Assembly (NCBI GenBank): GCA_041674805.1
Contig: JBAYVA010000002.1
Location: 184,294-248,293, forward strand
Source of the DNA: Candidatus Magasanikiibacteriota bacterium
GTDB lineage: Bacteria; Patescibacteriota; Patescibacteriia; Magasanikbacterales; UBA922
Direction of reading: 5' to 3'
Length of the DNA stretch: 64,000 nt
Shown: in pieces, positions 11,916-61,535 of the stretch
How the letters are laid out: each line of letters begins with the position of its first letter
Numbering within the stretch: position 1 is the first letter of the stretch
Program-made: the position numbers and the translations under genes
The notes under the pieces: generated by a model
Database searches by the model: none
The model's input: only the letters and a program-made list of their open reading frames with translations
What the model was told of the DNA's origin: nothing

Positions 11916-11932
11916 CATATTTTTAAATTTAG

Positions 11933-12023
11933 CGGAGAGAGAGGGATTCGAACCCTCGGTCCCGATATGATCGGGACACCGCTTTTCGAGAGCGGCACCT
12001 TCAACCAACTCAGACATCTCTCC
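11933..12023 (-). tRNA. tRNA-Ser (anticodon CGA), a type II tRNA with a long variable arm.
   Basis: Reverse complement GGAGAGATGTCTGAGTTGGTTGAAGGTGCCGCTCTCGAAAAGCGGTGTCCCGATCATATCGGGACCGAGGGTTCGAATCCCTCTCTCTCCG. The acceptor GGAGAGA/TCTCTCC pairs fully, the anticodon loop is CTCGAAA, the variable stem is TCCCGAT/ATCGGGA and the T-arm is GAGGGTTCGAATCCCTC. Confidence 0.85.
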
Positions 12024-12041: not shown

Positions 12042-13295
12042 TTAGTTTGTATAATTAATTATTTTTTTTGATAAACTTAAATATATTAAAAACCAAAACA
12101 GAATGGCTAAATCGTTTTTTATATAAGGTGAATCTACTAAACCTGTTATAAGTAACATTAGTAAACTTAATAATAAAAAGTTATTATAAATATTTTTTTC
12201 TTTGATATTTTTGTGTAATATATATACTAAGATTATTATAAATGATAGCAAACCTATTAATCCAGTATTTACCCAAATTGTCAAAAATATGTTGTGAGGA
12301 TGATGGTATATTTCAATATATTCACCATTTACTTTTTGATGATATGTTTTTATTTCTTGGCTATAAGAACCTAAACCACTTCCTTTTATTGGATGATCTT
12401 TTAAATACTCTAAAGTTTCTTTCCAAATTCCAATTCTAATTTGTCCAGATCTGTCTTGTAGTATTAATTCTGTTTTTATATTTTGTAATTTTGGTAAATT
12501 AAAAATTAATAGTGATGAAAATATTGTTAATATTATGATAATCCAACGTGTTTTTTTATAGAATAGAAGAATTAAAAATATTGCACTGAAAATACTTACC
12601 AAAGCTCCTGTAGACTTGGCAAAGAATATAGCAGGTAATGATGTAATTATAAATAAAGTTCCTAATAAAAAAGGCCATGATTTCACTGAGTGGTTTTTTA
12701 GATTATATAGTGCTATTGCAAAAATTGGTGCCAAAAATAATCCAACTCCATTTGGAAATCCATACCATGCTGTTACTCTGTAAGTATTAAGATTTTCCCA
12801 AAAAGCATATGGTACAAAAAATCCTGTAAAATGTTGATAAATAGCAAATAAGGATGTGGCTAGTCCAGACATTAATAAACCATTTATTATATATTTTTTT
12901 ATATCTATAGATATATTTGTAATTATAAAAAATAGTATTATTGGTTCTAGATAAAAAGCTTTCCATTCACCTAATGCTTGTTTTGTGTTGTGGTTAAATA
13001 ATATAGATACAGTAGCAAAAAATAAAAATAATAAAATTGAGATGTATAATAATTTATTTTTTTTAAAATTTATTTTTAAATTATTTATAATTTCATTTTT
13101 ATATTTTATAAAACTAATTATAATTAGTATGATAATTTGTAATTCTAAAAAAGTTGTTGGAATTTCTAAAAAATTAAAACGTAATAGATAAGTAGGTAAA
13201 AACAAAGCTAATAAAAAAAATGAGTATTCAATTTTTTTGAAACTAATAATTGTAAAAATACTTAAATAAACAATTGTTAAAAACCACATTATCAT
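12042..13295 (-). CDS. O-antigen ligase / Wzy-like polysaccharide polymerase family membrane protein (paralog 1).
   Basis: 12 predicted TM segments; 'HPHNIFLTIWVNTGLIGL' and 'LVDSPYIKNDLAILFW' motifs are shared with the gene at 13732..15006. Confidence 0.65.
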   Translation of the reverse strand: MIMWFLTIVYLSIFTIISFKKIEYSFFLLALFLPTYLLRFNFLEIPTTFLELQIIILIIISFIKYKNEIINNLKINFKKNKLLYISILLFLFFATVSILFNHNTKQALGEWKAFYLEPIILFFIITNISIDIKKYIINGLLMSGLATSLFAIYQHFTGFFVPYAFWENLNTYRVTAWYGFPNGVGLFLAPIFAIALYNLKNHSVKSWPFLLGTLFIITSLPAIFFAKSTGALVSIFSAIFLILLFYKKTRWIIIILTIFSSLLIFNLPKLQNIKTELILQDRSGQIRIGIWKETLEYLKDHPIKGSGLGSYSQEIKTYHQKVNGEYIEIYHHPHNIFLTIWVNTGLIGLLSFIIILVYILHKNIKEKNIYNNFLLLSLLMLLITGLVDSPYIKNDLAILFWFLIYLSLSKKIINYTN

Positions 13296-13466: not shown

Positions 13467-13555
13467 AAATGAGAGAGGGATTCGAACCCTCGGTCCAGCT
13501 TGCGCAGAACAACTGATTTCGAGTCAGTCCCATTCGACCACTCTGGCATCTCTCC
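13467..13555 (-). tRNA. Second tRNA-Ser(CGA)-like gene whose 3' acceptor strand is replaced by unrelated sequence; possibly a pseudo-tRNA.
   Basis: Reverse complement GGAGAGATGCCAGAGTGGTCGAATGGGACTGACTCGAAATCAGTTGTTCTGCGCAAGCTGGACCGAGGGTTCGAATCCCTCTCTC, but then ATTTATACC follows instead of TCCG. The D-arm, anticodon arm (CTCGAAA) and T-arm are canonical. The last three acceptor pairs would be A-A, G-U and G-U. Confidence 0.55.
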
Positions 13556-36867: not shown

Positions 36868-36966
36868 TTCTCCCCCTATTAGGGGGAGTTAGAGGGGGTC
36901 CATCTTTGAACAAGACGTTTTATCTTATAAAAGACCTCCCCTAGCCCCTCCTAATAGGAGGGGGAT
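36868..36966. repeat. GC-rich palindromic interspersed element, copy A (about 100 nt).
   Basis: tctccccctattagggggagttagagggggtccatctttgaacaagacgttttatcttataaaagacctcccctagcccctcctaataggagggggattc. The terminal hairpins are CCCCCTAtTAGGGGG and CCCCTCCTAaTAGGAGGGG. Confidence 0.8.
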
Positions 36967-36984
36967 TCATAAAATTTATTTTTT

Positions 36985-40876: not shown

Positions 40877-41038
40877 TCCGAGGTAGTTTAGTGGTAGAAT
40901 CCCGATAAGGGCTCCCAGATAGTTCAGTGGTAGAACGCAGCGCTGTTAACGCTGATGTCGTAGGTTCGAATCCTACTCTGGGAGCTTTTATCGGGACTGT
41001 TAACGCTGATGTCACAGGTTCGAATCCTGTTCTCGGAG
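40877..41038 (+). other. Disrupted or split tRNA-Asn-like gene whose 5' part (40877-40900) and 3' part (40996-41038) flank the intact tRNA-Asn. The insert is bracketed by the inverted repeat TCCCGATAA/TTATCGGGA.
   Basis: The 5' part TCCGAGGTAGTTTAGTGGTAGAAT has an acceptor and D-arm. The 3' part ACTGTTAACGCTGATGTCACAGGTTCGAATCCTGTTCTCGGAG has the anticodon loop, T-arm and an acceptor strand complementary to TCCGAGG. The 5' strand of the anticodon stem is missing. Confidence 0.5.
40913..40984 (+). tRNA. tRNA-Asn (anticodon GTT).
   Basis: TCCCAGA TA GTTC AGTGGTA GAAC G CAGCG CTGTTAA CGCTG ATGTC GTAGG TTCGAAT CCTAC TCTGGGA G. The cloverleaf is fully canonical with a 7-bp acceptor stem. Confidence 0.9.
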
Positions 41039-41180
41039 CAAACTCAAAATTTTCCTAATGAAACATTTATATACAAACAATAATAATCAAAATAATATTT
41101 TTAGTTATGGGATGTAGTTTATTGTTGAAATTTGTATAAATTAATAATTTCGTGATAAGCGGGTTTTTTTATTAAACAGT

Positions 41181-50586: not shown

Positions 50587-51510
50587 ATGTTGAAAAAAAT
50601 ATTTTTGTCTGTCGTTTTGTTTTTTGCTGTAACTCTTTTTTTAGGTGGTTGTAGTTTGCAAAATTCTTCTGAAGATACAAAAAATAGTGAACAAAAAATA
50701 AAAGTAGCTGCTAGTATTTTTCCTTTATATGATATAACAAAAGAAATTGCGGGAGATAAAATTGATGTTAGTTTGATTCTTCCTCCTGGCGCTAGCCCTC
50801 ACACTTTCGAAGTTTCAGCTTCTCAAATAAAAAAATTACAGGGTGTAAAATTGTTTTTTGTTATTGGTCAAAATTTGGATGCTTGGGTAGAAAATATTTC
50901 TTCAACAATCTCAGACTCGAAAACTGTTGATTTGAGTATGGTAGTAGAATTGCAACAACTAGATGAGAATAATCCAAATCATAGACCTGATGAAGAAGAT
51001 GAAGGTTTAGATCCTCACTATTGGCTAAGTCCAAAAAATATTTATACTGTATCTGAAGAAATTTTGAATCAATTGGTATTATTATCTCCAGAAAATGAAA
51101 GTTACTTTTTGGGTAATTATAATAATTTTGTAAATCAATTGCAGACCAAAGATGTCGAGTGGCAAGAAAAGATGAATAGTTTGACTAACAAAAATATTGT
51201 AGTATTTCATGATGCTTGGGGCTATTTTGCGGATCATTTTGGTTTGACTGTTGTTGGTACTTTTGAACCTTTTCCTGGACAAGAGCCTACTCCTCAATAT
51301 TTGAAAGAATTACAAGCTTCTGTCAAAGAATATAATATTAAAGCATTGTTTGCAGAACCACAGTTGTCTCAAGATTCTATCAAGACTTTAGCTAAAGATT
51401 TGGGAGTAGATATAAAAGTTTTGGATCCTACTGGTGGTGTAGAAGGACGTGCTAGTTATATTGAGATGATGGATTTTAATGTGAATAATGTATTTGATTT
51501 ATTAAAATAA
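50587..51510 (+). CDS. znuA: Metal (Zn/Mn) ABC-transporter substrate-binding lipoprotein, TroA/ZnuA family.
   Basis: Lipobox 'LGGCS', a His/Asp/Glu-rich loop 'NPNHRPDEEDEGLDPHYW' and the 'FHDAWGYF' motif. Confidence 0.7.
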   Translation: MLKKIFLSVVLFFAVTLFLGGCSLQNSSEDTKNSEQKIKVAASIFPLYDITKEIAGDKIDVSLILPPGASPHTFEVSASQIKKLQGVKLFFVIGQNLDAWVENISSTISDSKTVDLSMVVELQQLDENNPNHRPDEEDEGLDPHYWLSPKNIYTVSEEILNQLVLLSPENESYFLGNYNNFVNQLQTKDVEWQEKMNSLTNKNIVVFHDAWGYFADHFGLTVVGTFEPFPGQEPTPQYLKELQASVKEYNIKALFAEPQLSQDSIKTLAKDLGVDIKVLDPTGGVEGRASYIEMMDFNVNNVFDLLK

Positions 51511-51518
51511 TATTTGGA

Positions 51519-51612
51519 AGTTCCCCTCCTATTAGGAGGGGCTAGGGGAAGTATAGAGTAATATAAAACGTTTTATTCAAAGATGGACCCCCTCTAACTC
51601 CCCCTAATAAGG
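51519..51612. repeat. GC-rich palindromic interspersed element, copy B, in inverted orientation relative to copy A.
   Basis: Its reverse complement matches 36868-36966 over about 95 nt with about 12 substitutions. Confidence 0.8.
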
Positions 51613-51630: not shown

Positions 51631-52350
51631 ATGTTAATAAAAGTACAAAACCTATCCTACAAATTCAACGATTTCACAGCCTTGGAAAATGTGTCTTTTG
51701 AAATTGCCAAAGGAGAGATTGTGGCTATCATTGGTCCAAATGGCAGTGGTAAGACTACTTTGATAAAAAATATTATAGGAGTTTTGGAACCAACTGAAGG
51801 AAGTGTGATGATTGATGGCAAAAAACCAAAAGAAATAAGACACAAAATTGGTTATGTGCCACAAAAATTTGAATTCGATAAAACAATTCCTATCAGTGTT
51901 CATGAATTCATGAGTCTAGAAAAATGTGGCAAAAAAGGTCATGATGAAAAAAATATTATAGAAGCTCTAAGAGAAGTTGGTTTGGAAGATGTGGAAGAAA
52001 AACAATTGGGTAGTTTGTCTGGTGGTCAATTTCAACGAGTTATGATTGCTCGGGCACTGCTTCATGAAAAAGAAATCTTAATTTTTGATGAGCCTTCTAC
52101 GGGAATAGACATTGCTGGAGAAAAAACTATTTATGATTTGATAAAAAAAATAAATGAAGAACGTGGTACTACTTGTCTGATTGTTTCTCACGAACTTAAC
52201 GTTGTTAACAAATATACCAAAAAAGTAATTTGTATCAATAAAGAAATGGTTTGTTTTGGAGCACCAGAAATTGTGATTACCAAAGAGACTTTGGAGAAAC
52301 TGTATGGTAGTGATACTGGTTTGTTTCATGCGCATGATCATATTCATTAG
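51631..52350 (+). CDS. znuC: ABC-transporter ATP-binding protein (ZnuC-like).
   Basis: Walker A 'GPNGSGKTT', the signature 'LSGGQFQR' and Walker B 'ILIFDEP'. Confidence 0.8.
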   Translation: MLIKVQNLSYKFNDFTALENVSFEIAKGEIVAIIGPNGSGKTTLIKNIIGVLEPTEGSVMIDGKKPKEIRHKIGYVPQKFEFDKTIPISVHEFMSLEKCGKKGHDEKNIIEALREVGLEDVEEKQLGSLSGGQFQRVMIARALLHEKEILIFDEPSTGIDIAGEKTIYDLIKKINEERGTTCLIVSHELNVVNKYTKKVICINKEMVCFGAPEIVITKETLEKLYGSDTGLFHAHDHIH

Positions 52351-52357
52351 TATAGTA

Positions 52358-52387
52358 ATCCCGATTCGCTGAAAGACGAAGAGGGAT
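52358..52387. promoter_or_regulatory. Hairpin-family copy 1 (ATCCC-GA-TTCG-loop-CGAA-GA-GGGAT), 8 nt after the znuC stop codon.
   Basis: aATCCCgaTTCGctgaaagaCGAAgaGGGATc. Confidence 0.5.
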
Positions 52388-52477
52388 CTGTAGACCCTGT
52401 TAACTTTTATCTATTCAAAAACGTTTTTTAGAATCAATTTCAGGTTTATTAAATAAAAATATTTATACTTAAAAAAG

Positions 52478-52505
52478 ATCCCTCGTCGTATTCTCGACTC
52501 GGGAT
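52478..52505 (+). promoter_or_regulatory. Hairpin-family copy 2, immediately 5' of the znuB start.
   Basis: ATCCCtcGTCGtattctCGACtcGGGAT. Confidence 0.5.
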
Positions 52506-52506
52506 T

Positions 52507-53340
52507 GTGAGATACTCTATGCTAGAATTCCTACAATATCCCTTCATGATCAGAGCTCTGGTGAGTGGTATTTTTGTTTCCATTTTGCTTGGCTGGCTCG
52601 GTACTTTTGTGGTGACTCGCAAGATGAGTTTTATTGGCGACGGAATTGCTCATGCTTCTTTATCGGGTATTGCCTTGGCTATTTTGCTTGGTTGGGCACC
52701 GATTCCGACAGCTGTAATTTTGGCTAGTATCATCGCTGTAATTATTTATTTTTTGGAAAAGAAAACCAATATATCTAGTGATATGGCTATCGCTATTATG
52801 CTGACGACTGGCATGGCGATTGGTATTATTTTGCTAAGTTTTTATCAAGGTTATCAACCAGAACTAATGAGTTATTTGTTTGGAAATATTTTGGCTATCA
52901 ATAGTTATGATATGTTTTCTATTTTGATTATTGGTTTTTTTGTCTTGTTAATTTTATTTATTTTTTATCGCAAAATTTTGTTTAGTACTTTTGATCCAAT
53001 AGGTGCATATTTAGCTGGTATAAATATTTGGATTTTTGATTTGTTGCTTTATGTTTCGACTGCTGTAGTAATTATTCTTAGTATCAAGCTCGTTGGTGTG
53101 ATTCTGGTGAGTTCATTGCTTGTGACGCCTAGTGCGATTGCTAAAATGTTTGTCAGAAGTTTCAAAGCCTTTACTTGGCTGACTGTATTATTTTCTGTAC
53201 TTATAATTTCTTGTGGTTTGATTTTATCTTACTATCTTGATTTGCCATCTGGTGCGACGATTATTCTCACGGGAACTGGTTTGTTTATTTTGGCGTTTTT
53301 GTTTTCTCTTGCCTTAAAAAATAAAAGCATTAAAACATAG
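52507..53340 (+). CDS. znuB: Metal ABC-transporter permease (ZnuB-like).
   Basis: Eight TM helices typical of the ZnuB/TroCD fold; GTG start at 52507 or ATG at 52519. Confidence 0.75.
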   Translation: MRYSMLEFLQYPFMIRALVSGIFVSILLGWLGTFVVTRKMSFIGDGIAHASLSGIALAILLGWAPIPTAVILASIIAVIIYFLEKKTNISSDMAIAIMLTTGMAIGIILLSFYQGYQPELMSYLFGNILAINSYDMFSILIIGFFVLLILFIFYRKILFSTFDPIGAYLAGINIWIFDLLLYVSTAVVIILSIKLVGVILVSSLLVTPSAIAKMFVRSFKAFTWLTVLFSVLIISCGLILSYYLDLPSGATIILTGTGLFILAFLFSLALKNKSIKT

Positions 53341-53390
53341 AAACATTTCACCCTACGGGTGATCAGCCAAAGGCTGAAAAATAATTGAAC

Positions 53391-53421
53391 AAAAAAACAA
53401 CTTTGACGAGTTGTTTTTTTG
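53391..53421. terminator. Bidirectional terminator.
   Basis: aaaaaaacaac-tttgacga-gttgttttttt. Confidence 0.65.
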
Positions 53422-53434
53422 TTCAAAATAAATT

Positions 53435-53746
53435 TTATTTTATTTGTGCGTAAGCTGTATTTAAACATTTTGAGATATCTAATTTATCAGGGTCATCTCT
53501 ATGTAAATCTGGATGAAATAATTTGATTAATTCTCTATACCTTTTCTTTATTTCATCTTTTGATGATCCTACTGGTATGCCTAATATTATATAAGCATCC
53601 GGTTTTTCTCCATTTTTTAATTGAGATAGATAAGTTAATATTCTTTTTTCTTCTGTTATTTTGTTTTCTCTATCATCATTATTTTCCTCAAGTATACTTT
53701 TTAGTTTTTCCTCTTTTTGAAAAGGGGGAATGTATTGTTCTTGCAT
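53435..53746 (-). CDS. J-domain (DnaJ-like) small protein.
   Basis: 'DAYIILGIPVGSSKDEIKKRYRELIKLFHPDL' carries the HPD motif. Confidence 0.7.
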   Translation of the reverse strand: MQEQYIPPFQKEEKLKSILEENNDDRENKITEEKRILTYLSQLKNGEKPDAYIILGIPVGSSKDEIKKRYRELIKLFHPDLHRDDPDKLDISKCLNTAYAQIK

Positions 53747-53817
53747 ATTTTTAAGTTATTTATTATTCTAAAAAATTTATTATATAAATATTTTTTTATT
53801 TTGTACTAGCAAAATTA

Positions 53818-55644
53818 TTACAACTTCCAATCCACTGGCAATTTTCCAGTAAAATCAAAATCTCCAAACAAAACATCGGCAACACCTTGTCCTTCACTGC
53901 CGGGGAGCCAAGAGGCTATAATTCCGTCCCAATTTTTGGCATAGTCTTTTATATCTAGTGGACGTCCAGAGACTATTATTACTACTATTTTTTTGCTTTT
54001 TGCTTGTACCTTTTCTATTACCAATAAATCCTCAGGACTTAAAATTGGATTGGCAATATCTCCCCAGCCTTCGGCATAAGGTTTTTCACCGACAATAGCA
54101 ATGCCAACGTCGGCTAGATTATTTGTGGTAGCAAAATTTCCTTCTTTATTATAATCAATTTCAGTATCTTTGGAAATAGTATTTTTGATAGCTTCAAGAA
54201 TGGTCGTGCCCAAAATACCAGCATTGCCATCTATACCTTGCCATTCAGTCGTCCAGCCACCTGCTTGGCGACCCAAATTATCGGCTGATCCACCTGCCAC
54301 GATGATTTTTTTCAATGTTTTGGATAATGGTAATACTGAATTTTTATTTTTTAATAATACTTGAGATTTACGAACTGCTTCTCTGGCTATTGCGCGGTGC
54401 TCTTCACTGCCTATCACGGACAAGCCTTCTGCTAGAGCTTCCGGACGATCGAATAAGCCTGTCTCAAATTTCACGGTCAAAATTCTTTTGACAGCATCGT
54501 CTATGCGCTCTTTTGTGATATCACCATTAGTCACGGCTTTTTGCATATTGGAGATAAAATCTTTGTAATCAAATGGTGTCATCACCATATCGATCCCGGC
54601 GTTCACTGCTCTGACTAATGAATTATATTTATTATTTTCGATGAGATAGACACCGTACCAATCGGAAACTACAAAACCATAAAATTTCATTTCATTTTTT
54701 AGAATTTCTGTCAAAAGATGATAATTGTCAGAGTTTTTGGTATCTTGCCAACTAGCAGTACCTACCATAATGACGCGCGCTCCAGCTGTGATTGCTTTTT
54801 GGAAAGGAGGTAAATGAACTTGACGTAAAGTTTTTTCGTCAATAGTTATATTGCCTTCTTCTATTTGAAAATCTTTATTGCGGGATGTGCCATATATCAT
54901 ATCTCCTCCACCAATAAAATGTTTTGGGTTGGCTAAGACATTGAAATAGCCAGAGGATGAATCTTGTGTACCTTCTAAATAAGCAACTCCCAGTTGCGCG
55001 ACAGTGTCTGTATTTGAGCCAAAAGTTTCGTAGTTTTTGCCCCAACGGATATCTTGGGCAACATCAAGATTGGGAGCAAAATTCCAATAAATTCCTGTCG
55101 CGGCCATTTCATCGGCCGTTGCTTTGGCGACTCGTTTCACTAAATCTGGATCCTGGCTAGCGCCCAAACCAATAGCATGAGGGAAAATGGTAGCTCCAAG
55201 TACATTGCCATGGCCATGGACAGAGTCAATGCCATACAAAAGTGGTATGCCTAGACAAGTATCTTTGGCAGCGTCTTGGAAATTATTTATCATTTGTAAC
55301 CAGGCTAGTGGAGTATCAGTTTTTGGTCCAGCTCCACCACCGCTTAATAATGCTCCTAAATTATATTTGCTAATATCATTAATATTATTGATACTATTTT
55401 TTTCAATCAAAACCATTTGTCCTATTTTTTCTACCTCAGTCATTCTACTCATTAAGTCGGTGACTCTTTCGTCAATTGTTAATTTTGAATTTTGGTAAGG
55501 AAGATTTGTTTGATGACAATTAATATTTTCATTAGTAGGTGATGAAGATGGTAATTTGAGAAAAACAAAAATTGATGTCACAATTAGTAGTGACGGTATA
55601 ATTAAAAAGGTAATCAATTTTGAACGATAAAAATTAGAATTCAT
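53818..55644 (-). CDS. Glycoside hydrolase family 3 (beta-glucosidase / beta-N-acetylhexosaminidase-like), secreted.
   Basis: Signal/TM anchor, 'GIDSVHGHGN' and the 'FVVSDW' catalytic-Asp region. Confidence 0.8.
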   Translation of the reverse strand: MNSNFYRSKLITFLIIPSLLIVTSIFVFLKLPSSSPTNENINCHQTNLPYQNSKLTIDERVTDLMSRMTEVEKIGQMVLIEKNSINNINDISKYNLGALLSGGGAGPKTDTPLAWLQMINNFQDAAKDTCLGIPLLYGIDSVHGHGNVLGATIFPHAIGLGASQDPDLVKRVAKATADEMAATGIYWNFAPNLDVAQDIRWGKNYETFGSNTDTVAQLGVAYLEGTQDSSSGYFNVLANPKHFIGGGDMIYGTSRNKDFQIEEGNITIDEKTLRQVHLPPFQKAITAGARVIMVGTASWQDTKNSDNYHLLTEILKNEMKFYGFVVSDWYGVYLIENNKYNSLVRAVNAGIDMVMTPFDYKDFISNMQKAVTNGDITKERIDDAVKRILTVKFETGLFDRPEALAEGLSVIGSEEHRAIAREAVRKSQVLLKNKNSVLPLSKTLKKIIVAGGSADNLGRQAGGWTTEWQGIDGNAGILGTTILEAIKNTISKDTEIDYNKEGNFATTNNLADVGIAIVGEKPYAEGWGDIANPILSPEDLLVIEKVQAKSKKIVVIIVSGRPLDIKDYAKNWDGIIASWLPGSEGQGVADVLFGDFDFTGKLPVDWKL

Positions 55645-55782
55645 GATATTTTTTATATTTTTTTTAGGATTTGATGATAAAGAAAAATAATTTTATTTTA
55701 GCCAAAAGATGCTTGCTAGTCGTATATTATGTCGTCAGTCTTATAACTAGCAAACATAGATAGAACAAACTAATATTGTTTG

Positions 55783-55932
55783 TTATACTATTTTTTGACC
55801 TTTAATCAGTCTTACGAGTACTACGATAACAGCTACTACAAGTAGGATGTGAATGAAACCTCCGATTGTGTAGGAAGTCACTACTCCTAGTAACCATAAG
55901 ACGATTAGAACGATAGCGATAGTCCAAAGCAT
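55783..55932 (-). CDS. Lmo0937-family small membrane protein.
   Basis: 'MLWTIAIVLIVLWLLGVVTSYTIGGFIHILLVVAVIVVLVRLI'. Confidence 0.6.
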   Translation of the reverse strand: MLWTIAIVLIVLWLLGVVTSYTIGGFIHILLVVAVIVVLVRLIKGQKIV

Positions 55933-56193
55933 ATGGGTATGTATTAATGAATTAATTTTTGTAATTACCCCTCTATTTGAGTATAGCATAGAAACGTACT
56001 TATGCCATAGTGTATTTTTTTGAGAAAATTTTTGGATTTAGGTTTCTACTGTTTTTAGGTATTATAAAAAACCTTTGTTTAAAAGGTTTTTTATTATTTC
56101 GTAGGATATTCGCGCATATATAAGTTTTTTGTGCTGTACAATGATTTAGTTTAGTGACTATAAAGATTGAATTGCAAGGTGATGCGTTAATTT

Positions 56194-56481
56194 TTATTTT
56201 TCGAAATCCTGAAAGTAAACATATTCACATTTCATATTTGTTTTTTTCTCAAACTCAGCTATTTCTACTCTTATTTGTCTTAATCCAATCCAAACACACT
56301 GTATTTCATCGATGCCATAAACATAAAATTTTTTTTCGTAGTTAGGACCAGAAATTTTGCATTCACAACGACGATCATCATTTGGTGATTTCGGATCAAG
56401 TTCAGGTTGACCTATTGAAATTTCAATGAAGTCTTTCGTACCTATAAGAGGATATTTAGCTTTTAGATATAGCTTTAACAT
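56194..56481 (-). CDS. Hypothetical protein.
   Basis: 95-aa ORF with no recognisable motifs. Confidence 0.3.
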   Translation of the reverse strand: MLKLYLKAKYPLIGTKDFIEISIGQPELDPKSPNDDRRCECKISGPNYEKKFYVYGIDEIQCVWIGLRQIRVEIAEFEKKTNMKCEYVYFQDFEK

Positions 56482-56643
56482 GTTGTGATTTTTTTAAAAA
56501 ACTATTTATTTGTTAATAATGTTACTTTGCTGTTAAATGTTATATAACGTTCGCGTGTATGAGAAGTTTACGAATTACATTTGGGTGGAGATTTTTGAAA
56601 AAAAACGTAACCTTATATATGTTGTTGTGTGATGTAACAAAAT

Positions 56644-56820
56644 TATTCGCCAGCCATTGTTCCAAGTAAAAGTAAAAATAATACAACTATCGCACCAATA
56701 GTTACAACTTTTTCATAGATGGAACGTTCTTTCCATGATTTCATAAATTGAATCACTACGAAGTGAATCAGAAGGTAAATCATTATAACTCCTATTACAA
56801 TGTAAAAAATTTCCATTACA
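56644..56820 (-). CDS. Possible small two-TM membrane protein (58 aa), below the ORF-track length cutoff.
   Basis: Manual translation of the reverse complement gives MEIFYIVIGVIMIYLLIHFVVIQFMKSWKERSIYEKVVTIGAIVVLFLLLLGTMAGE. Confidence 0.25.
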
Positions 56821-57059
56821 AAAGTTCAAACAAGAAATGAAACTTCGAAGATTTAGCAATAAGACTATAAAAAGCTATCTGTATTATACACAAGAGTGCC
56901 TGCGCTTTGCAAGGACTGTGAATAACTATTTTTTTATTTAAAGTTCATTTTTATTTTACATTTATCCCCATTTGTTCTAAAATAGAAAAGTAGTTAAACT
57001 ATACGAGTTGTATTTACTAAATTTATTTGATTATATAGTGAAGCTCTTACTTATGAAAG

Positions 57060-57087
57060 ATCTTTCGCTGTATTCTCAGCTTAAGAT
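57060..57087 (+). promoter_or_regulatory. Hairpin-family copy 3 (outer stem ATCTT/AAGAT), 9 nt before the ATG at 57097.
   Basis: ATCTTtcGCTGtattctCAGCttAAGAT. Confidence 0.5.
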
Positions 57088-57096
57088 GGCAAAAAA

Positions 57097-57531
57097 ATGT
57101 CTCATCCTTTCAAAAAAATGTTAAAAAGTCATTATTGCAAAATTGTTTTTGCTTTCTTTTTTGTACTTAGTTTTTATCTAGTACCACACAAATTGTTTCA
57201 AGGTTTGTACTTGCTTTTGGTAGTCTTGTTTTCGCTTAGTTTTTCGGCTGTGATGACTTGCTTAGTCTTGAATATGAAAGAGAGATACAAGAACGCCAGA
57301 GATGCTGGCAAAAGCGTCCTGGGTATTGTAGCGGCCCTTCTGGGCTTGTCTGCTTTGCAGGTTTGTACGGTTGGTGGAGGATTTTGTGCAATATCACTTG
57401 GTAGCAGTATTGTGGCCACGATTTTCCCTGGTACAGCTTTTCATTTTTTGGGACAACATGCAGTAATTATTATTATTTTATCTATTTTGATTCAGTGGTA
57501 TTCGTTGTATAAGATGAAGTGTTTTAGGTAA
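57097..57531 (+). CDS. Hypothetical integral membrane protein.
   Basis: 144 aa with four hydrophobic helices. Confidence 0.45.
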   Translation: MSHPFKKMLKSHYCKIVFAFFFVLSFYLVPHKLFQGLYLLLVVLFSLSFSAVMTCLVLNMKERYKNARDAGKSVLGIVAALLGLSALQVCTVGGGFCAISLGSSIVATIFPGTAFHFLGQHAVIIIILSILIQWYSLYKMKCFR

Positions 57532-57624
57532 GCAGAGACAGCAGAAACAGCTGTCAGCAGATACAGCAGATTCAGTTGTTTATCTCAATGTATCTCTATT
57601 TTATCTCAATTTTATTTAAGAAAG

Positions 57625-57652
57625 ATCCCTCGCTGTATCCTCAGCTCGGGAT
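57625..57652 (+). promoter_or_regulatory. Hairpin-family copy 4, 12 nt before the ATG at 57665.
   Basis: ATCCCtcGCTGtatcctCAGCtcGGGAT. Confidence 0.5.
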
Positions 57653-57664
57653 GACGGAAAAATT

Positions 57665-58897
57665 ATGAAAGTAGCAATAATAGGTGGAGGAGCGGCTGGC
57701 ATGATGTGTGCGGCGACAATTGTAGAAGAACATCCAGAGGTGGAAGTGTTTTTGATTGAAAAAAATAATTCTTTGGGTAAAAAAGTGATTATCTCTGGGG
57801 GTGGGCGTTGCAATGTGACGACTGGAATTGATGATTTGAAATTGGTTTTGAGCAAATATCCTCGGGGTAATAAGTTTTTACAATCGGCTATGCATAGATT
57901 TCCACCAAGCAAAGTTTTTGAATGGTTTGAAAATCATGGAGTAGAACTCAAATGCGAAGATGATTTGCGGGTTTTTCCTGTTTCCAATGATGGTCATGAT
58001 ATTGTTGCTGTATTTGAAAAAATATTTAAAAATGCAAAAACAAATTTACTTTTCAAACACAATATGAAAAATATTGTGAAGAAAAAAAATAAATTTGTAA
58101 TATCTTTTGCTGAACAAGAAGATTTGGAAGTAGACAAAGTCGTCATGGCTCTGGGTGGACAGGCTTATCGTCAGACTGGCTCAACTGGAGATGGTTATGA
58201 TATTTTGGAAAAACTGGGTCACAAAATTACTGAGTTGTCACCAAGTCTAAACTCTTTTTTAACTCAAGAAAAATGGCCAAAAGAATTGTCAGGTCTTTCT
58301 TTTGTCAAAGCTGTGATAAAAGTCAAAGGTCATAAAAAATATCAATTCACAGGACCTTTTCTGTTTACACATACGGGTGTAAGTGGACCAGCTGTTTTCG
58401 CTTTGTCAGCGATGATTGCTTTTGAAAAATATGATAGACAAAACCCGTTAGAAATTTTGATAGATGTTTTGCCGGACAAAAATGTAGAAGAATTGTTTGT
58501 TGAATTGCAAAGATTGCGTGAAGAAAGTTTACAAAAAACATTCAAAAATACTTTGCACAATTTTTTGGTAAAATCTCTTAGTGAAAAAGTTTGTGAAAAT
58601 TTGAAGATTGATTTTGAAAAGAAAAATGTTGAGATGAGCAAAAAAGATTTGCGAGCAGTAGCCGAATATATCAAAGCTTTGCCTCTAAAAATTATTGGTC
58701 GTGGGGCAGGGGACGAATTTGTGACTGCTGGTGGAGTAGAGTTGTCAGAAGTCGATCCAAAGACTATGGAATCAAAAATTTGTTCTGGGCTCTATTTTGC
58801 GGGAGAAATTCTGGATATTGATGGTTTTACTGGTGGATTCAATCTCCAGGCTTCTTGGGCGACGGGGAGAGCGGCGGGACTGGCGGTTGTTGACTAG
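57665..58897 (+). CDS. FAD-dependent oxidoreductase of the HI0933/BaiN family.
   Basis: 'KVAIIGGGAAGMMCAA' dinucleotide fold, 'ISGGGRCNVT' and C-terminal 'GEILDIDGFTGGFNLQ'. Confidence 0.8.
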   Translation: MKVAIIGGGAAGMMCAATIVEEHPEVEVFLIEKNNSLGKKVIISGGGRCNVTTGIDDLKLVLSKYPRGNKFLQSAMHRFPPSKVFEWFENHGVELKCEDDLRVFPVSNDGHDIVAVFEKIFKNAKTNLLFKHNMKNIVKKKNKFVISFAEQEDLEVDKVVMALGGQAYRQTGSTGDGYDILEKLGHKITELSPSLNSFLTQEKWPKELSGLSFVKAVIKVKGHKKYQFTGPFLFTHTGVSGPAVFALSAMIAFEKYDRQNPLEILIDVLPDKNVEELFVELQRLREESLQKTFKNTLHNFLVKSLSEKVCENLKIDFEKKNVEMSKKDLRAVAEYIKALPLKIIGRGAGDEFVTAGGVELSEVDPKTMESKICSGLYFAGEILDIDGFTGGFNLQASWATGRAAGLAVVD

Positions 58898-58940: not shown

Positions 58941-61535
58941 ATGGCTGATAAAAGAGAACCTTTTGGGGGAACATTATCATTAGAAATAGAATCAAAAGAA
59001 GAGGGTAATGCTGAACTTGATTTTTTATTGAGTAAAATAAGAGAAATAAAAAGTATTTTAGAGTTGTTTCCTTATATGGATATGACAATACTTTATGATT
59101 TAACTAGTAAAGAAGAAAAAAAAGAAACGGTTCAAGATTTATTGGATCTTTTGAAAAAAGTGGAAGATGAGATAAAAACAAAATTTGAGTCTGGGGAATT
59201 AGTTAGTCAAGATGATGTTGATAAGTATCTTAAATTATTAAATTTTTTGGAAGTAGATTTTTGGAGTTTGATGTCAGAAAAAATTTCTCAAAAAGCAGGG
59301 TTTTCTTACAAAGCAGTACTTGAATGGCCAGAAGAATATTTAGATCGTGATTTTCTTTCTCAAAAAACAAAAGTTTTTGATACATTTGTTAAATCAGTTT
59401 TGACTTCAGCAGAATATTCTTATGAAGCTGTGTTGAGTTGGCCAGAAGAATATTTGGACAAGACTTTGAAAGGAGAAAGTGAAACAGTTTTTGCTAGATT
59501 GGTAAGGGAAGTCTTGACTTCTATAGAATATTCTTATGAAGCTGTATTGAGTTGGCCAAAAGAATATTTGGATAAAACTTTGGATGGTGATAATGAGACC
59601 ATTTTTGCTAGATTAGTAAAAGAAGTTAGGATATTAGCGGAATATTCTTATAAAGCACTAATGAATTGGAAGGAGGAATATTTACTTAGAACTTTGGAAG
59701 GTTGTAATGGCAATGTCGTGTCTATCTTGACTGCGGCGGTTTCTGATCCTGAGATTGAATCTTCTTCACTTTATTCAAGTCAAATGATTTTGGGATGGTC
59801 AGACATCTACAAAAAAAGTCCTTATAATTATACACCTGAAGACTATGCTAGATTTTTTAATCAAGTTTTAACAAATCCAAAATTAGTCGTTGATATTTTT
59901 GAAGAAAATTTTTCTTATTTTTCTGTGTCCGAGTTAGAATCATTGTTGAAAAGTGTTGTTTCTTCGCAGAAAGCTATTTATTATGCGTTAACAACTTGGG
60001 ATAGTAGTACACTTGATAAAAAAATAGGAAAAGATGGTAAAGATATTTTTTTTGTTTTAGCTTCAAATCTGGATTTTAATCATGTTGACAATTTAAATCT
60101 TAATAGTTTGTGTTTGTTATCAGAAGATAAATATTTAGATAGAGTTTTGGATGGAAAAAATACTTTTTTTACAAAATCAATATTGGCAATTCGTGATAGT
60201 ACAAATTTGTTTATTTATCTTCCAGCTTATTTTAGCAAAGATTATTTGTCTAGAAGTATGCCAGATACAGACAAAACTATCTTTGATCTGGTGGTGGAAA
60301 AAGCCCTAAAAATACCTTATTTTGCCTATGTGGCTGCTTTGAATTGGCAAAAAGAATTTTTGGATATAGTACAAGAAGGTGAAAATGAAAGTATACTTTC
60401 TAGACTTTTGGATGTTGTCAAAAAAGATAGCGAGTATTCTCAATTATTGTTAGTTACTTATAGCGAAGACAGTTCTACTCTAGATAGTCATTTTGTTGAT
60501 TTAGTTGAAAAAGTATTAGAATCTCCAGAATTTTCATATGAGGCTTTGTTGACTTGGCCAGAAGATCATTTGAATAAAATTATTTCTGGAAGTGCTGAAA
60601 CTGTTTTTTCAAGACTTTATGAAAAAGCATTACTTTTTGTGGAAGAGAAAAAAGAAAATAAATATAAATTATTTTTATTTTTGACAAAAAAACAGAGTGA
60701 ATCTAGTAGTATAAAAGATATTACACAATTTTTAGCTAGTTTGAGAGAAAGTTTAATAAAAGATGAGAGTTTTTATTTTTGGATTATTGGTAAATTGTAT
60801 CAGAAAGATAAAGATGTGTTAAAATTATTGGAGGATTTAGAAATTTTTGAAAAACTTATTGAATCTGTTTCTAATGATCCTAAAGATAGTGGTATTTTGT
60901 TAACTTCTTTGCCAGATTATTTATTGGATAAAACAGTTGGGGATAAAGAAGACAATACTTTTTCAAAATTGGTGAGAAAAAGTTTTGATGCTGAAAATTA
61001 TACTATTGTTCATACTTTATTAAATTTGGATTATTCATATTTAAATAGATGTTTACCTGGTGATGCTGAAAAAATATTTTATAAATATATAAGGTTAGTA
61101 ATTAATGATCCAAATTCTGCTCATTCACTTTTGTTGTTTTTGTCTGATAATTTACTTTTTGATACTTTGCCAGGTGATGATATGAGCATTTTTTTTAGAT
61201 TGGTTGAAACTGTTTCAACAAGTCCAAAATCTTCACTAGATTCTATTAAAGAAATATCTGAAGCAAAATTATATAGAAAATTTCCAGGTACAGGCAAAAG
61301 AGTTATTGAAATGTTTGTTGATTCTGTTTTGCAAGATCATCGATGGGTAAGTGATTTGATTCTTCATTGTGAAATACTTTTTTTAGAGTATATCATTCCA
61401 GATGATAACAAAAGTGTTTTAAAAAAGTTAGTTTCGGTTTTATCTGATGATGAGATCGTTAGATTGAAAAACCTTTTTTTAAGTAATAATCGAAAATTAC
61501 GTAGGAAGGATTTATTTTTAGAAGCAATTAAATAA
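58941..61535 (+). CDS. Large cytoplasmic helical-repeat protein of unknown function, with about 38-aa repeats.
   Basis: '(Y/F)SYEAVLSWPEEYLDKTL.G..ETVFARLV.EV' recurs at least 12 times with increasing divergence; no signal peptide or TM helix. Confidence 0.6.
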   Translation: MADKREPFGGTLSLEIESKEEGNAELDFLLSKIREIKSILELFPYMDMTILYDLTSKEEKKETVQDLLDLLKKVEDEIKTKFESGELVSQDDVDKYLKLLNFLEVDFWSLMSEKISQKAGFSYKAVLEWPEEYLDRDFLSQKTKVFDTFVKSVLTSAEYSYEAVLSWPEEYLDKTLKGESETVFARLVREVLTSIEYSYEAVLSWPKEYLDKTLDGDNETIFARLVKEVRILAEYSYKALMNWKEEYLLRTLEGCNGNVVSILTAAVSDPEIESSSLYSSQMILGWSDIYKKSPYNYTPEDYARFFNQVLTNPKLVVDIFEENFSYFSVSELESLLKSVVSSQKAIYYALTTWDSSTLDKKIGKDGKDIFFVLASNLDFNHVDNLNLNSLCLLSEDKYLDRVLDGKNTFFTKSILAIRDSTNLFIYLPAYFSKDYLSRSMPDTDKTIFDLVVEKALKIPYFAYVAALNWQKEFLDIVQEGENESILSRLLDVVKKDSEYSQLLLVTYSEDSSTLDSHFVDLVEKVLESPEFSYEALLTWPEDHLNKIISGSAETVFSRLYEKALLFVEEKKENKYKLFLFLTKKQSESSSIKDITQFLASLRESLIKDESFYFWIIGKLYQKDKDVLKLLEDLEIFEKLIESVSNDPKDSGILLTSLPDYLLDKTVGDKEDNTFSKLVRKSFDAENYTIVHTLLNLDYSYLNRCLPGDAEKIFYKYIRLVINDPNSAHSLLLFLSDNLLFDTLPGDDMSIFFRLVETVSTSPKSSLDSIKEISEAKLYRKFPGTGKRVIEMFVDSVLQDHRWVSDLILHCEILFLEYIIPDDNKSVLKKLVSVLSDDEIVRLKNLFLSNNRKLRRKDLFLEAIK
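59298..59753. repeat. Four tandem 114-nt coding repeats, the middle two nearly identical at the nucleotide level, inside the helical-repeat protein gene.
   Basis: 'gaatattcttatgaagctgt' recurs at 59412 and 59526, with related units at 59298 and 59640. Confidence 0.8.

Follow-up and report, generated by a model that had tools for sequence, protein, structure and literature searches.

Four hairpins of one architecture at the znu locus

A stretch of 64,000 nucleotides from a Candidatus Magasanikiibacteriota bacterium (assembly GCA_041674805.1, contig JBAYVA010000002.1, positions 184,294 to 248,293 of the forward strand), here called the window, carries a znu locus with four short hairpins, c1 to c4, between its genes. 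The locus reads, in order, Fur-family regulator, ZnuA, ZnuC, c1 (inverted), 90 nt, c2 and ZnuB; a GH3 glycosidase gene and small genes on the opposite strand lie downstream of ZnuB, followed by c3, the gene of a membrane protein of 144 amino acids (aa), c4 and the gene of an HI0933-type flavoprotein. When the sequence was re-read, the hairpins were found where an initial annotation of this DNA had placed them and with the one architecture that it had described: an outer stem of 5 bp, a 2x2 internal loop, an inner stem of 4 bp and a loop of 6-8 nt. The features concerned are the following, in window coordinates.

51631..52350, forward strand: znuC-like ABC ATPase gene (Pfam ABC_tran, 7.5e-36); its 3' end adjoins c1
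52358-52387, reverse strand: hairpin c1, ATCCC GA TTCG CTGAAAGA CGAA GA GGGAT as read on the forward strand
52388..52477, no strand assigned: c1-c2 spacer, 90 nt, A/T-rich, between the dimer arms; ends in the class-1 flank TATACTTAAAAAA
52478-52505, forward strand: hairpin c2, ATCCC TC GTCG TATTCT CGAC TC GGGAT
52519..53340, forward strand: znuB-like permease gene (Pfam ABC-3, 8.5e-71); c2 precedes it
57060-57087, forward strand: hairpin c3, ATCTT TC GCTG TATTCT CAGC TT AAGAT
57097..57531, forward strand: gene of the 144-aa predicted membrane protein, without a Pfam match, between c3 and c4
57625-57652, forward strand: hairpin c4, ATCCC TC GCTG TATCCT CAGC TC GGGAT
57665..58897, forward strand: HI0933-like flavoprotein gene (Pfam HI0933_like, 1e-80); c4 precedes it

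Sense copies are referred to as class 1 and include c2, c3 and c4, which end 13, 9 and 12 nt before the ATG codons at 52519, 57097 and 57665, respectively; the outer stem of c3 is the covarying version ATCTT/AAGAT, and c3 and c4 flank the 144-aa gene as direct repeats, just as the initial annotation had it. That these three copies stand just 5' of start codons was also correctly seen, at distances of 9-13 nt, but the spacing of 1 nt given for znuB referred to a GTG. From sequence comparison, znuB almost certainly starts with the ATG at 52519, because ATGCTAGAATT is conserved in the orthologue at L024 (related loci bear L numbers throughout), and the GTG at 52507 is an unlikely start. The shared 5' flank gaAAGATC is real but longer than had been claimed, reading T-W-T-A-Y-TTAWRAAAGATC.

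Hairpin c1 belongs to class 2. It starts 7 nt past the znuC stop codon (52348-52350), and its proximity to this codon had been noticed before, but it is actually an inverted copy of the same element, reversed relative to znuC and paired with c2. Its reverse complement, ATCCC TC TTCG TCTTTCAG CGAA TC GGGAT, has the TC/TC internal loop of the other copies, so that c1 and c2 are an inverted pair 90 nt apart in which c1 is the left arm. The minus-strand flank of c1 is GGGTC-TACAG, and the spacer between the arms holds a degenerate central box, TTTTAGAATCAATTTCAGG (~52426-52444), which in relatives reads GTCTTTTAGAATCAATTAACG.

The pattern ATCCC-N14-26-GGGAT was observed three times in the window against 0.12 expected, and none of 100 shuffles got to three. 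A scan of the window for the exact architecture returned c1-c4 together with ordinary A/T-flanked terminators. Each of the four is predicted to fold as proposed, with energies of -9.8 to -14.6 kcal/mol, and all were recognised by the covariance model described below, with E values of 4e-9 to 1e-14 (c1, match 52354-52392 on the minus strand, facing the stop codon at +8, 39.6 bits, E = 3.8e-9; c2, 54.7 bits, E = 5e-14; c3, 51.5 bits; c4, 56.7 bits). A fifth and more divergent copy, c5, lies ~640 nt past the window end (L001:16973-17004, ~window position 64637) and 12 nt before the ATG of an exonuclease gene, with a third covarying version of the outer stem, ATCCT/AGGAT. Counterparts of the window copies are found at related loci: an orthologous copy of c2 precedes znuB in L024, where the c1 orthologue has compensatory inner-stem changes, near-identical copies of c3 occur in L013 and L003, and an orthologous copy of c4 precedes the same HI0933-family gene in L047.

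Copies in related genomes and covariation of the stems

One genome per species was scanned with a pattern in which the loop and the unpaired positions were fixed and both stems were left free. The scan gave 63 loci, 44 of which lie in six Candidatus Magasanikbacteria/Patescibacteria metagenome-assembled genomes (MAGs), with 3-11 strict-pattern copies each; the other 19 were scattered, at about the number expected by chance. Matches from the Candidate Phyla Radiation (CPR) had their stems paired at 8-9 of the 9 positions, and most of the remaining matches did not. A covariance model was built from the pattern-scan copies, and the covariation statistics were computed on 44 of them. Scanning related genomes with a covariance model had been proposed at the outset; when related loci were scanned, 82 distinct copies were recovered in ~380 kb, a density that is biased upward, the loci having been chosen around seed copies.

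The 82 copies share the frame GAAAGATCCYTC…TCRGGAT, mostly followed by GAC, around an inner hairpin that varies in length (roughly 8-35 nt) and in the sequence of its stem (GTCG/CGAC, GCTG/CAGC, GTTG/CAAC, ATCG/CGAT, TTCG/CGAA, GCCG/CGGC and CTCCG/CGGAG were seen). Pairing is kept by compensatory changes, as had been noted for the window copies: 94.2 % of the stem cells are paired where shuffles give 86.5 %, and the covariation score of 0.339, for which shuffles give 0.187, was reached by 0 of 500 shuffles. Inner pairs 14-28 and 15-27 alternate UA/CG and CG/UA with zero unpaired cells. The stem begins AT...AT in 43 of the 44 copies, and its innermost outer pair is C.A in 18 of the 44, so that the outer stem is effectively 4-5 bp long. 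Compensatory changes are also seen at orthologous loci, namely in the pnp leader (GCTG/CAGC versus GTCG/CGAT) and at the znuC 3' site (TTCG/CGAA versus CCTG/CAG). The 3' flank, read on the forward strand, has G in 33/67, A in 49/67 and C in 22/67, which makes GAC common and not invariant.

These results support the earlier conclusion that the compensatory changes mark a selected hairpin, and not a sequence-specific double-stranded operator, given the 94 % pairing and the clean pair switches. As to the strand on which selection acts, the usage of G.U versus C.A wobbles showed no asymmetry in either positional class.

Position and orientation of the copies

The copies lie mostly outside coding regions, with 7 of the 82 within called open reading frames (ORFs). 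An ORF follows 49 of the 82 in sense orientation, and for 37 of these the distance to the ATG is 9-15 nt; a further 21 are inverted and stand within -7 to +11 nt of the preceding gene's stop codon. Where an inverted copy stands at -7, the element itself supplies the stop codon, its TCAGGAT arm giving TGA as the complement of TCA. For the start-proximal copies, neither the start codon nor the 9-15 nt before it ever falls within the hairpin. Each orientation has its own flank: yTTAA-GAAAG is found upstream of sense copies only, with G at -4 in 62/67 against an A/T-rich background, and most inverted copies carry CAGrGTC-TACAG, the flank of class 2. The genes downstream are unrelated to each other and include znuB, HI0933, NifU, Fe-S assembly proteins, ferredoxins, RNase H, SerRS, Fpg, ParA, UPP synthase, PNPase and GIY-YIG nucleases.

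Sense and inverted copies are often combined. Besides c1/c2, at least 14 more inverted (-)(+) pairs were found, mostly ~80-130 nt apart, and the usual module consists of a stop codon, an inverted copy, a spacer of ~90 nt, a sense copy, ~12 nt and the ATG, with each arm ~45 nt from the central box. There is also a symmetric variant in which two class-1 arms stand back to back around a palindromic centre, CGTTAATTGATTC...GAATCAATTAACG. In three genomes, modules separate cistrons of the isc/nif Fe-S operon, just as one occupies the znuC-znuB gap of the window, and isc genes have a sense copy on their 5' side and an inverted one on their 3' side.

Magasanikbacteria are ultra-small, and their lineage is compact. 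In the window, G+C is ~32 %, gaps between co-directional genes are 3-43 nt long, and no Shine-Dalgarno (SD) sequence was found before any of the 42 genes. Leaders at the 42 gene starts are rich in A/T, many of them with a TATAAT box that stands only 8-25 nt from the ATG; so short a distance implies that leaders in this organism are very short or absent and that initiation would be SD-independent. Repeats of this kind disturb automatic start prediction, and some stop codons lie within the repeat. In the public gene calls, the znuB start (L001:4882) is too far downstream compared with window position 52519, and the start called for the exonuclease gene (L001:16984) falls within c5, the start proposed here being L001:17018.

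Some copies stand in other surroundings. The leader of the PNPase gene pnp begins with the hairpin in three genomes, with the ORF roughly 100-130 nt downstream (L053:174-330, L066:1490-1640 and L044:7472-7620); the E. coli pnp leader is an autoregulatory target, and the leaders headed by the hairpin may merit folding and comparison. Three genomes have a hairpin followed by ~45 nt and an intrinsic terminator, with no ORF (L062:2796-2900, L052:519-620 and L028:4307-4410), a unit that could be an ~85-nt small RNA or an antisense stub facing the convergent gene. An extra perfect G+C palindrome (CCTGCCTGCCGGCAGGCAGG or shorter) lies between the TTAAGAAA flank and the hairpin in some copies (L010:1590-1650, L030:1255-1313, L052:495-555, L035:6175-6240 and L044:544-610); the orthologous copy in L054 is without it, and it may be a further moving mini-palindrome.

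The hairpin was also considered as a terminator and rejected, since no U-run follows it in either orientation; the terminators of the window are perfect A/T-flanked hairpins elsewhere.

Turnover at orthologous sites

Orthologous genes with 53-96 % protein identity differ in whether a copy is present. RNase H is 96 % identical between L005 and L006, with a copy in L006 only; three genes of the Fe-S operon differ likewise between orthologues, and the L047 orthologue of the 144-aa gene (53 % identity) has no counterpart of c3. At the orthologous NifU site the inner hairpin has been replaced, different genomes having different ones, and where filled and empty sites were compared, a whole arm or the whole content of the gap was replaced.

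A wider family beyond the CPR

Two matches in Verrucomicrobiota pair perfectly and have the same flanks around new inner stems, GGCG/CGCC and GCCG/CGGC. One Verrucomicrobiota locus, L020, has hairpins alternating in the manner of bacterial interspersed mosaic elements (BIMEs) every 95-107 nt between two amidohydrolase genes. Wide scans of metagenomes and viral contigs were then based on the frame GATCCYTC-N7-14-TCRGGATGAC, in which the GAC tag is imposed by the pattern, and gave at least 309 copies at loci of 31-73 % G+C. The inner part of these copies is mostly minimal (GCTTCGC, GCTGCGC), with the covarying variants ACTTCGT, GGCTTCGCC and GGCCTGTCGGCC.

The following counts hold among the matches listed. 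The free Y/R position is T-A in 199, C-G in 103 and other in 7, so that 302/309 pair, and 88 % of the 128 distinct inner sequences close with a pair, against ~44 % when shuffled. Dimers are nearly always (-)(+) with the GAC tags outward and a spacer of 8-80 nt, and many copies are single or in tandem; no preferred distance to a downstream start codon was found. Copies accumulate where the gene on the tag side has its stop codon, and in at least 18 of them TGA lies inside ATCCTGA. At L074:383-539, five hairpins of the widespread type form a head-to-tail array with a period of 33 nt, a tandem amplification and not an inverted dimer.

Because the frame is the same, the Magasanikbacteria copies appear from their sequences to be a lineage-specific branch of a very common bacterial repeat, and the start-proximal arrangement, judged in the same way, appears peculiar to that lineage. 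Scans against Rfam, at gathering and at permissive thresholds, of the window, related loci and typical widespread copies returned no family at the element, and the literature searched by taxon and repeat terms and by sequence strings gave no description of this element nor of REP-like repeats in CPR organisms (REP, repetitive extragenic palindromic). The initial statement that no motif of this shape is described is borne out by Rfam, but the general build is that of REPs, and close analogues are described among the tagged REPs (PMC3733652).

The hairpins as probable copies of a REP-like element

Family membership, conservation of the structure, distribution, orientation bias and turnover of the copies are observed. 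Taking them together, we consider it probable that the hairpins are copies of a repetitive palindromic element of the REP/BIME type, closest to the REPs that carry a CGTC/TGTC tag; the best reading is that of an apparently unnamed, mobile REP-like element and not of a dedicated gene switch. The initial annotation had left three options, and the last of these, a REP-like interspersed element, is the best supported, because dozens of copies per related genome stand before unrelated genes, inverted dimers are formed, orthologues differ in the presence of copies and the family crosses phyla. Occlusion of the ribosome-binding region is not supported, with SD sequences in 0/42 genes and hairpins that end 9-15 nt before the ATG; hairpins of some relatives, which stand ~100 nt from the ORF (pnp) or have no ORF after them, speak against it as well. 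A processing or stability element, the remaining option, may apply as a secondary effect.

The unit is a short imperfect palindrome. Its base is conserved, with (A)GATCCYTC as the 5' half and TCRGGAT (mostly with GAC) as the 3' half, and makes an outer stem of 4-5 bp and a fixed 2x2 mismatch; its top, the inner stem and loop, varies freely. Folding alone would join the two halves at every length of the top. Since the conserved halves lie 7 to ~35 nt apart, the stems covary and the unpaired bases are fixed, it is probably the folded base of the hairpin that is recognised, be it in single-stranded DNA, in cruciform DNA or in RNA; a rigid duplex site appears excluded on the same grounds. Copies would spread and turn over at the DNA level, by a putative enzyme and/or by conversion between copies. 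A DNA-level process is favoured by the strand asymmetry, which is independent of gene direction, by the two-fold symmetry of the dimers, which are often inverted with their GAC tags facing outward, and by the occurrence across phyla and on viral contigs.

Surviving copies would gather at two tolerated spots, right after a stop codon and 9-15 nt before a start, at the edge of a minimal leader. With gaps of 3-43 nt and a minimal, unstructured leader that is SD-independent, the two distance peaks could arise without any dedicated function. For the window, this would make c1 and c2 an inverted dimer that entered the znuC-znuB gap, with c3, c4 and c5 as single copies in 5' leaders. Those copies that lie inside operons would have to be transcribed and would fold; we infer that copies are passively transcribed as parts of transcription units and form stem-loops, with selection filtering which of them persist. 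REPs of E. coli affect mRNA stability and the uncoupling of cistrons, and the RNA stem-loops may stabilise or uncouple mRNA segments here as well. A domesticated role in the 5' leader is possible on the sequence evidence.

Several observations weigh against this reading. Copy density was counted solely around seed copies. No transposase or other partner gene recurs beside the copies in the loci examined, and the sole Y1 transposase found in ~2.2 Mb of fragments is bracketed by another hairpin, of GTAG type. A GIY-YIG nuclease as general partner, an idea that came from ORFs inside modules and from GIY-YIG proteins whose sequence ends in '...DPSLRSG', was rejected, since 380 kb of CPR loci had 6 such ORFs and 620 kb of metagenome loci had 2, and GIY-YIG genes adjoin copies only now and then. 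Three comparisons of filled and empty sites gave no target-site duplication and no clean insertion boundary. Most copies in Magasanikbacteria are in sense orientation just before starts, with a conserved TTAAGAAAG flank, and the single copies c3, c4 and c5 keep a spacing of 9-12 nt despite 90-240 nt of non-coding DNA; this spacing and flank look more like a selected function in the 5' leader than like passive tolerance.

Two kinds of gene met in the search for a partner deserve description in their own right. The Y1 transposase gene is IS200-like (L041:4879-5440; Pfam Y1_Tnp, 7e-19), has an in-frame stop and carries GTAG-TCCCAGAGGGAC hairpins on either side. This unit is of the GTAG-tagged REP/RAYT-like or IS200 type (RAYT, REP-associated tyrosine transposase) and is distinct from the hairpin element studied here; in the ~2.2 Mb of fragments no association of the latter with RAYTs was found, the hairpins flanking the transposase being different ones. 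Small free-standing GIY-YIG genes (Pfam 1e-13 to 1e-15) lie at L007:1898-2227, L007:4035-4370, L009:1561-1884, L047:6384-6677 and L059:5691-5996. One is inserted in the spacer of a hairpin module, the module itself being intact in the orthologous locus, another is between duplicated tRNA 3' halves, and they look like separate selfish insertions.

Alternative explanations

The strongest competitor, tentative and in our judgement rather unlikely, is that the element, whatever its origin, has been domesticated in Magasanikbacteria as a gene-boundary cassette and now works as a module for gene expression. Its sense copy would form a stem-loop in the 5' leader, possibly close to or at the mRNA 5' end, and protect the transcript from 5'-dependent decay, with exactly one unstructured landing pad of ~12 nt left to the ribosome ahead of the AUG; the inverted copy would be a 3' stabiliser or processing hairpin, and the ~90-nt spacer would carry promoter or processing signals. 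This would account for the tight spacing of the 37 copies that lie 9-15 nt from the ATG, single copies with ample non-coding DNA upstream included, and for the flank yTTAA-GAAAG of class 1, which is confined to sense copies and stays put when an extra G+C palindrome is inserted between it and the hairpin. The hairpin also heads the pnp leader and the terminator unit without an ORF, which fits an element of the transcript 5' end better than one of translation. The lack of SD sequences, the short leaders and the bracketed isc genes suit such a cassette, as does the good -10-like TAGAAT in the central box.

Yet a promoter at the hairpin itself had to be rejected: TANNNT stands at the required -10 offset in just 14/67 copies, and no sigma-70-like site is consistently positioned. 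The cassette is further opposed by orthologous genes that do without the hairpin and by the family outside the lineage, which shows no spacing to start codons. In the sense RNA, inverted copies present GA/GA where the others present UC/UC, so that one RNA-binding partner would not recognise both, and wobble usage is without strand preference in either class. That all of it holds jointly, namely that an ancient REP-like palindrome has been domesticated as the gene-boundary cassette of Magasanikbacteria and that the frame GATCCYTC-hairpin-TCRGGATGAC is among the most widespread bacterial repeat families, we regard as unlikely.

An improbable reading makes the whole ~150-bp module (hairpin, 90-nt spacer, hairpin) the mobile unit, a miniature inverted-repeat transposable element (MITE) of Correia/NEMIS type, with single hairpins as its decayed remnants. 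The fixed geometry of the module, its arms ~45 nt from a central GAATC, and the fully symmetric version agree with this, as do the insertion between cistrons, the presence/absence polymorphism and a second MITE-like repeat in the same operon. However, the three filled/empty comparisons gave no target-site duplications, the two arms mostly differ in their inner hairpin and in their inner flank (TACAG versus GAAAG), the spacer is mostly unconserved, and among the matches listed the dimers of the wide family have spacers of 8-80 nt, with many copies single or in tandem.

It is very improbable that the element is a double-stranded site for a dimeric protein, either the operator of a global repressor or an Xer/dif-like or attC-like core of 11-6-11 geometry that brackets genes as recombination modules. 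The commonest form, of 28 nt, can be read as two 11-nt arms with 6 nt between them, inverted copies stand on both sides of some genes, and the frame is conserved on one DNA strand whatever the direction of the gene. But a rigid duplex does not allow conserved halves to stand anywhere from 7 to ~35 nt apart, and covariation is seen at the inner arm positions, which a protein contact site would keep constant. Recombinase or integrase genes do not recur beside the copies, and no GTTRRRY/RYYYAAC attC boxes were found; a tyrosine-recombinase core (dif/pdif, attC) was rejected on the variable spacing and the covariation.

Least credible of all, and already largely refuted by the distribution, is a gene-specific translational or metal-responsive riboregulator (an SD-occluding hairpin, an RNA thermometer or a site for a zinc- or redox-responsive protein): the window copies do lie within 12 kb near a Fur-family regulator and znuACB, immediately before start codons and with a structure kept by covariation, but the same element stands before dozens of unrelated housekeeping genes in related genomes, there is no SD to occlude, the hairpin takes in neither the start codon nor the 9-15 nt ahead of it, inverted copies lie at gene 3' ends, presence varies at orthologues and Rfam has no match. 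The hairpin thus sequesters neither a ribosome-binding site nor a start, nor is it confined to one gene or regulon, as a cis-regulatory 5'-UTR (untranslated region) RNA would be, and a Zur/Fur operator was rejected because copies stand before unrelated genes.

Other repeats and duplications in the window

A second, unrelated intergenic repeat of ~95-109 nt occurs at 36874-36982 and, inverted, at 51504-51612, with copies 84-86 % identical and G+C-rich hairpins at both ends (CCCCCTATTAGGGGG ... CCCCTCCTAATAGGAGGGG). One copy occupies the znuA-znuC gap, and the znu operon thus has two different repeat insertions. Two tRNA-Ser(CGA) genes on the minus strand (11932-12023 and 13467-13555) flank a 417-aa ORF (12042-13295), a duplication that may be the sign of an integrated element. 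For tRNA-Asn (40913-40985), the 3' half recurs 54 nt downstream at 88 % identity (40943-41039), possibly an integration scar. Tandem coding repeats are found at 1-1005, in 141-nt units at the start of a 1031-aa ORF, and at 59294-60598, in 114-nt units inside an 864-aa ORF without a Pfam match.

Significance

Reading the hairpins as a genome-wide repeat replaces their reading as a gene-specific riboregulator. REP-like palindromes would then colonise the tiny intergenic gaps of CPR bacteria, and the CPR copies are tied to a widespread and apparently unnamed family that is absent from Rfam and occurs in metagenomes and on viral contigs over 31-73 % G+C. What spreads this family is a question of the same kind as that posed by the 'orphan' REPs of CGTC type. 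If the start-proximal arrangement is functional, it would clearly exemplify exaptation, a selfish repeat having become a 5'-leader element of SD-independent bacteria. Should the cassette hold, a sense copy would be a 5'-end protector and an initiation 'bumper' ~12 nt before the AUG, an inverted copy would give the preceding gene its stop codon and a 3' hairpin, and individual znu and isc cistrons would be insulated from one another.

Comparison with known systems

The 5' stabiliser stem-loops of the E. coli ompA and the B. subtilis aprE and ermC leaders would, by analogy, share with class-1 copies a stem-loop upstream of an unstructured ribosome-binding stretch. The position of the copies would fit such a role if transcription starts in the GAAAG flank. 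The ompA, aprE and ermC stem-loops are, however, features of single genes and not repeats, and the promoter evidence here is weak.

With Correia/NEMIS elements, the MITEs of Neisseria, the modules share an intergenic unit of ~150 bp with inverted ends that stands next to or between genes and is co-transcribed, a central motif like a protein box and possible outward promoter activity. They differ in that each end is itself a hairpin, no TA target is duplicated, the ends are not fully complementary and the spacer is poorly conserved.

The likeness to REP/BIME/REPIN elements goes further. Both are imperfect palindromes of 20-40 nt whose stem is broken by a fixed mismatch, with many extragenic copies within transcription units, heterogeneous stems within a family and presence that varies between related genomes. 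Single copies, regularly spaced inverted dimers, alternating clusters and closeness to or overlap with stop codons are likewise common to both (PMC3733652, PMC2817692). The units here are 28-32 nt long with 94 % of the stem cells paired, the copies are many, dispersed and mostly extragenic (six MAGs; 82 copies in ~380 kb), and inverted dimers or alternating clusters are found in Magasanikbacteria, L020 and metagenome loci. The differences are the fixed distance of 9-15 nt before starts at which most Magasanikbacteria copies stand in sense orientation, where REPs lie mainly downstream of genes and at variable distance to the next ORF, the long dimer spacer of ~90 nt and the unusually length-variable inner hairpin. 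REPs of Proteobacteria are mobilised by RAYT transposases, and the GTAG tag that such REPs have at the 5' end is lacking here, the 5' flanks being GAAAG, TACAG or CAGGG and the 3' flank GAC; class 2 does carry CTAC at its 5' side, the complement of GTAG, but on the wrong side.

Closest in kind are the REPs with a CGTC tag. The published properties of REPs include extragenic location, dimers, positions near ORF 3' ends, stop codons supplied by the repeat and, for the CGTC type, the lack of a dedicated transposase, and the CGTC-tagged super-family includes dRS3 of Neisseria and RPE-4/6 of Rickettsia (Di Nocera, De Gregorio and Rocco 2013, PMC3733652). Neither Patescibacteria nor Verrucomicrobiota is among the phyla which that survey lists for CGTC repeats. 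Read on its opposite strand, the element is (C/T)GTC-AT-CC..., with an unpaired tag like CGTC/TGTC, common but not invariant, and a stem starting A.T, T.A; as with those families (PMC3733652), it occurs in several phyla, lies near ORF 3' ends, has some intragenic or stop-overlapping copies and, in the loci examined, adjoins no dedicated transposase. The CGTC families as described there, however, have uninterrupted stems of 8-9 bp, loops of 4-5 nt, a CCA tail and mostly head-to-head dimers, and in none of these four respects does the element agree with them: its stem is 5 bp, a 2x2 mismatch and 2-5 bp, its loop 3-8 nt or more, its tail C-T-rich, (A)GATC being GATCT on the other strand, and its dimers have their tags outward. 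From this comparison, made with the families as the text of that survey describes them, we regard the element as related in kind to the CGTC REPs, without counting it among their proven members. The hairpins are a genuine feature with solid statistics, best filed as a new REP-like dispersed palindrome and not as a novel riboregulator.

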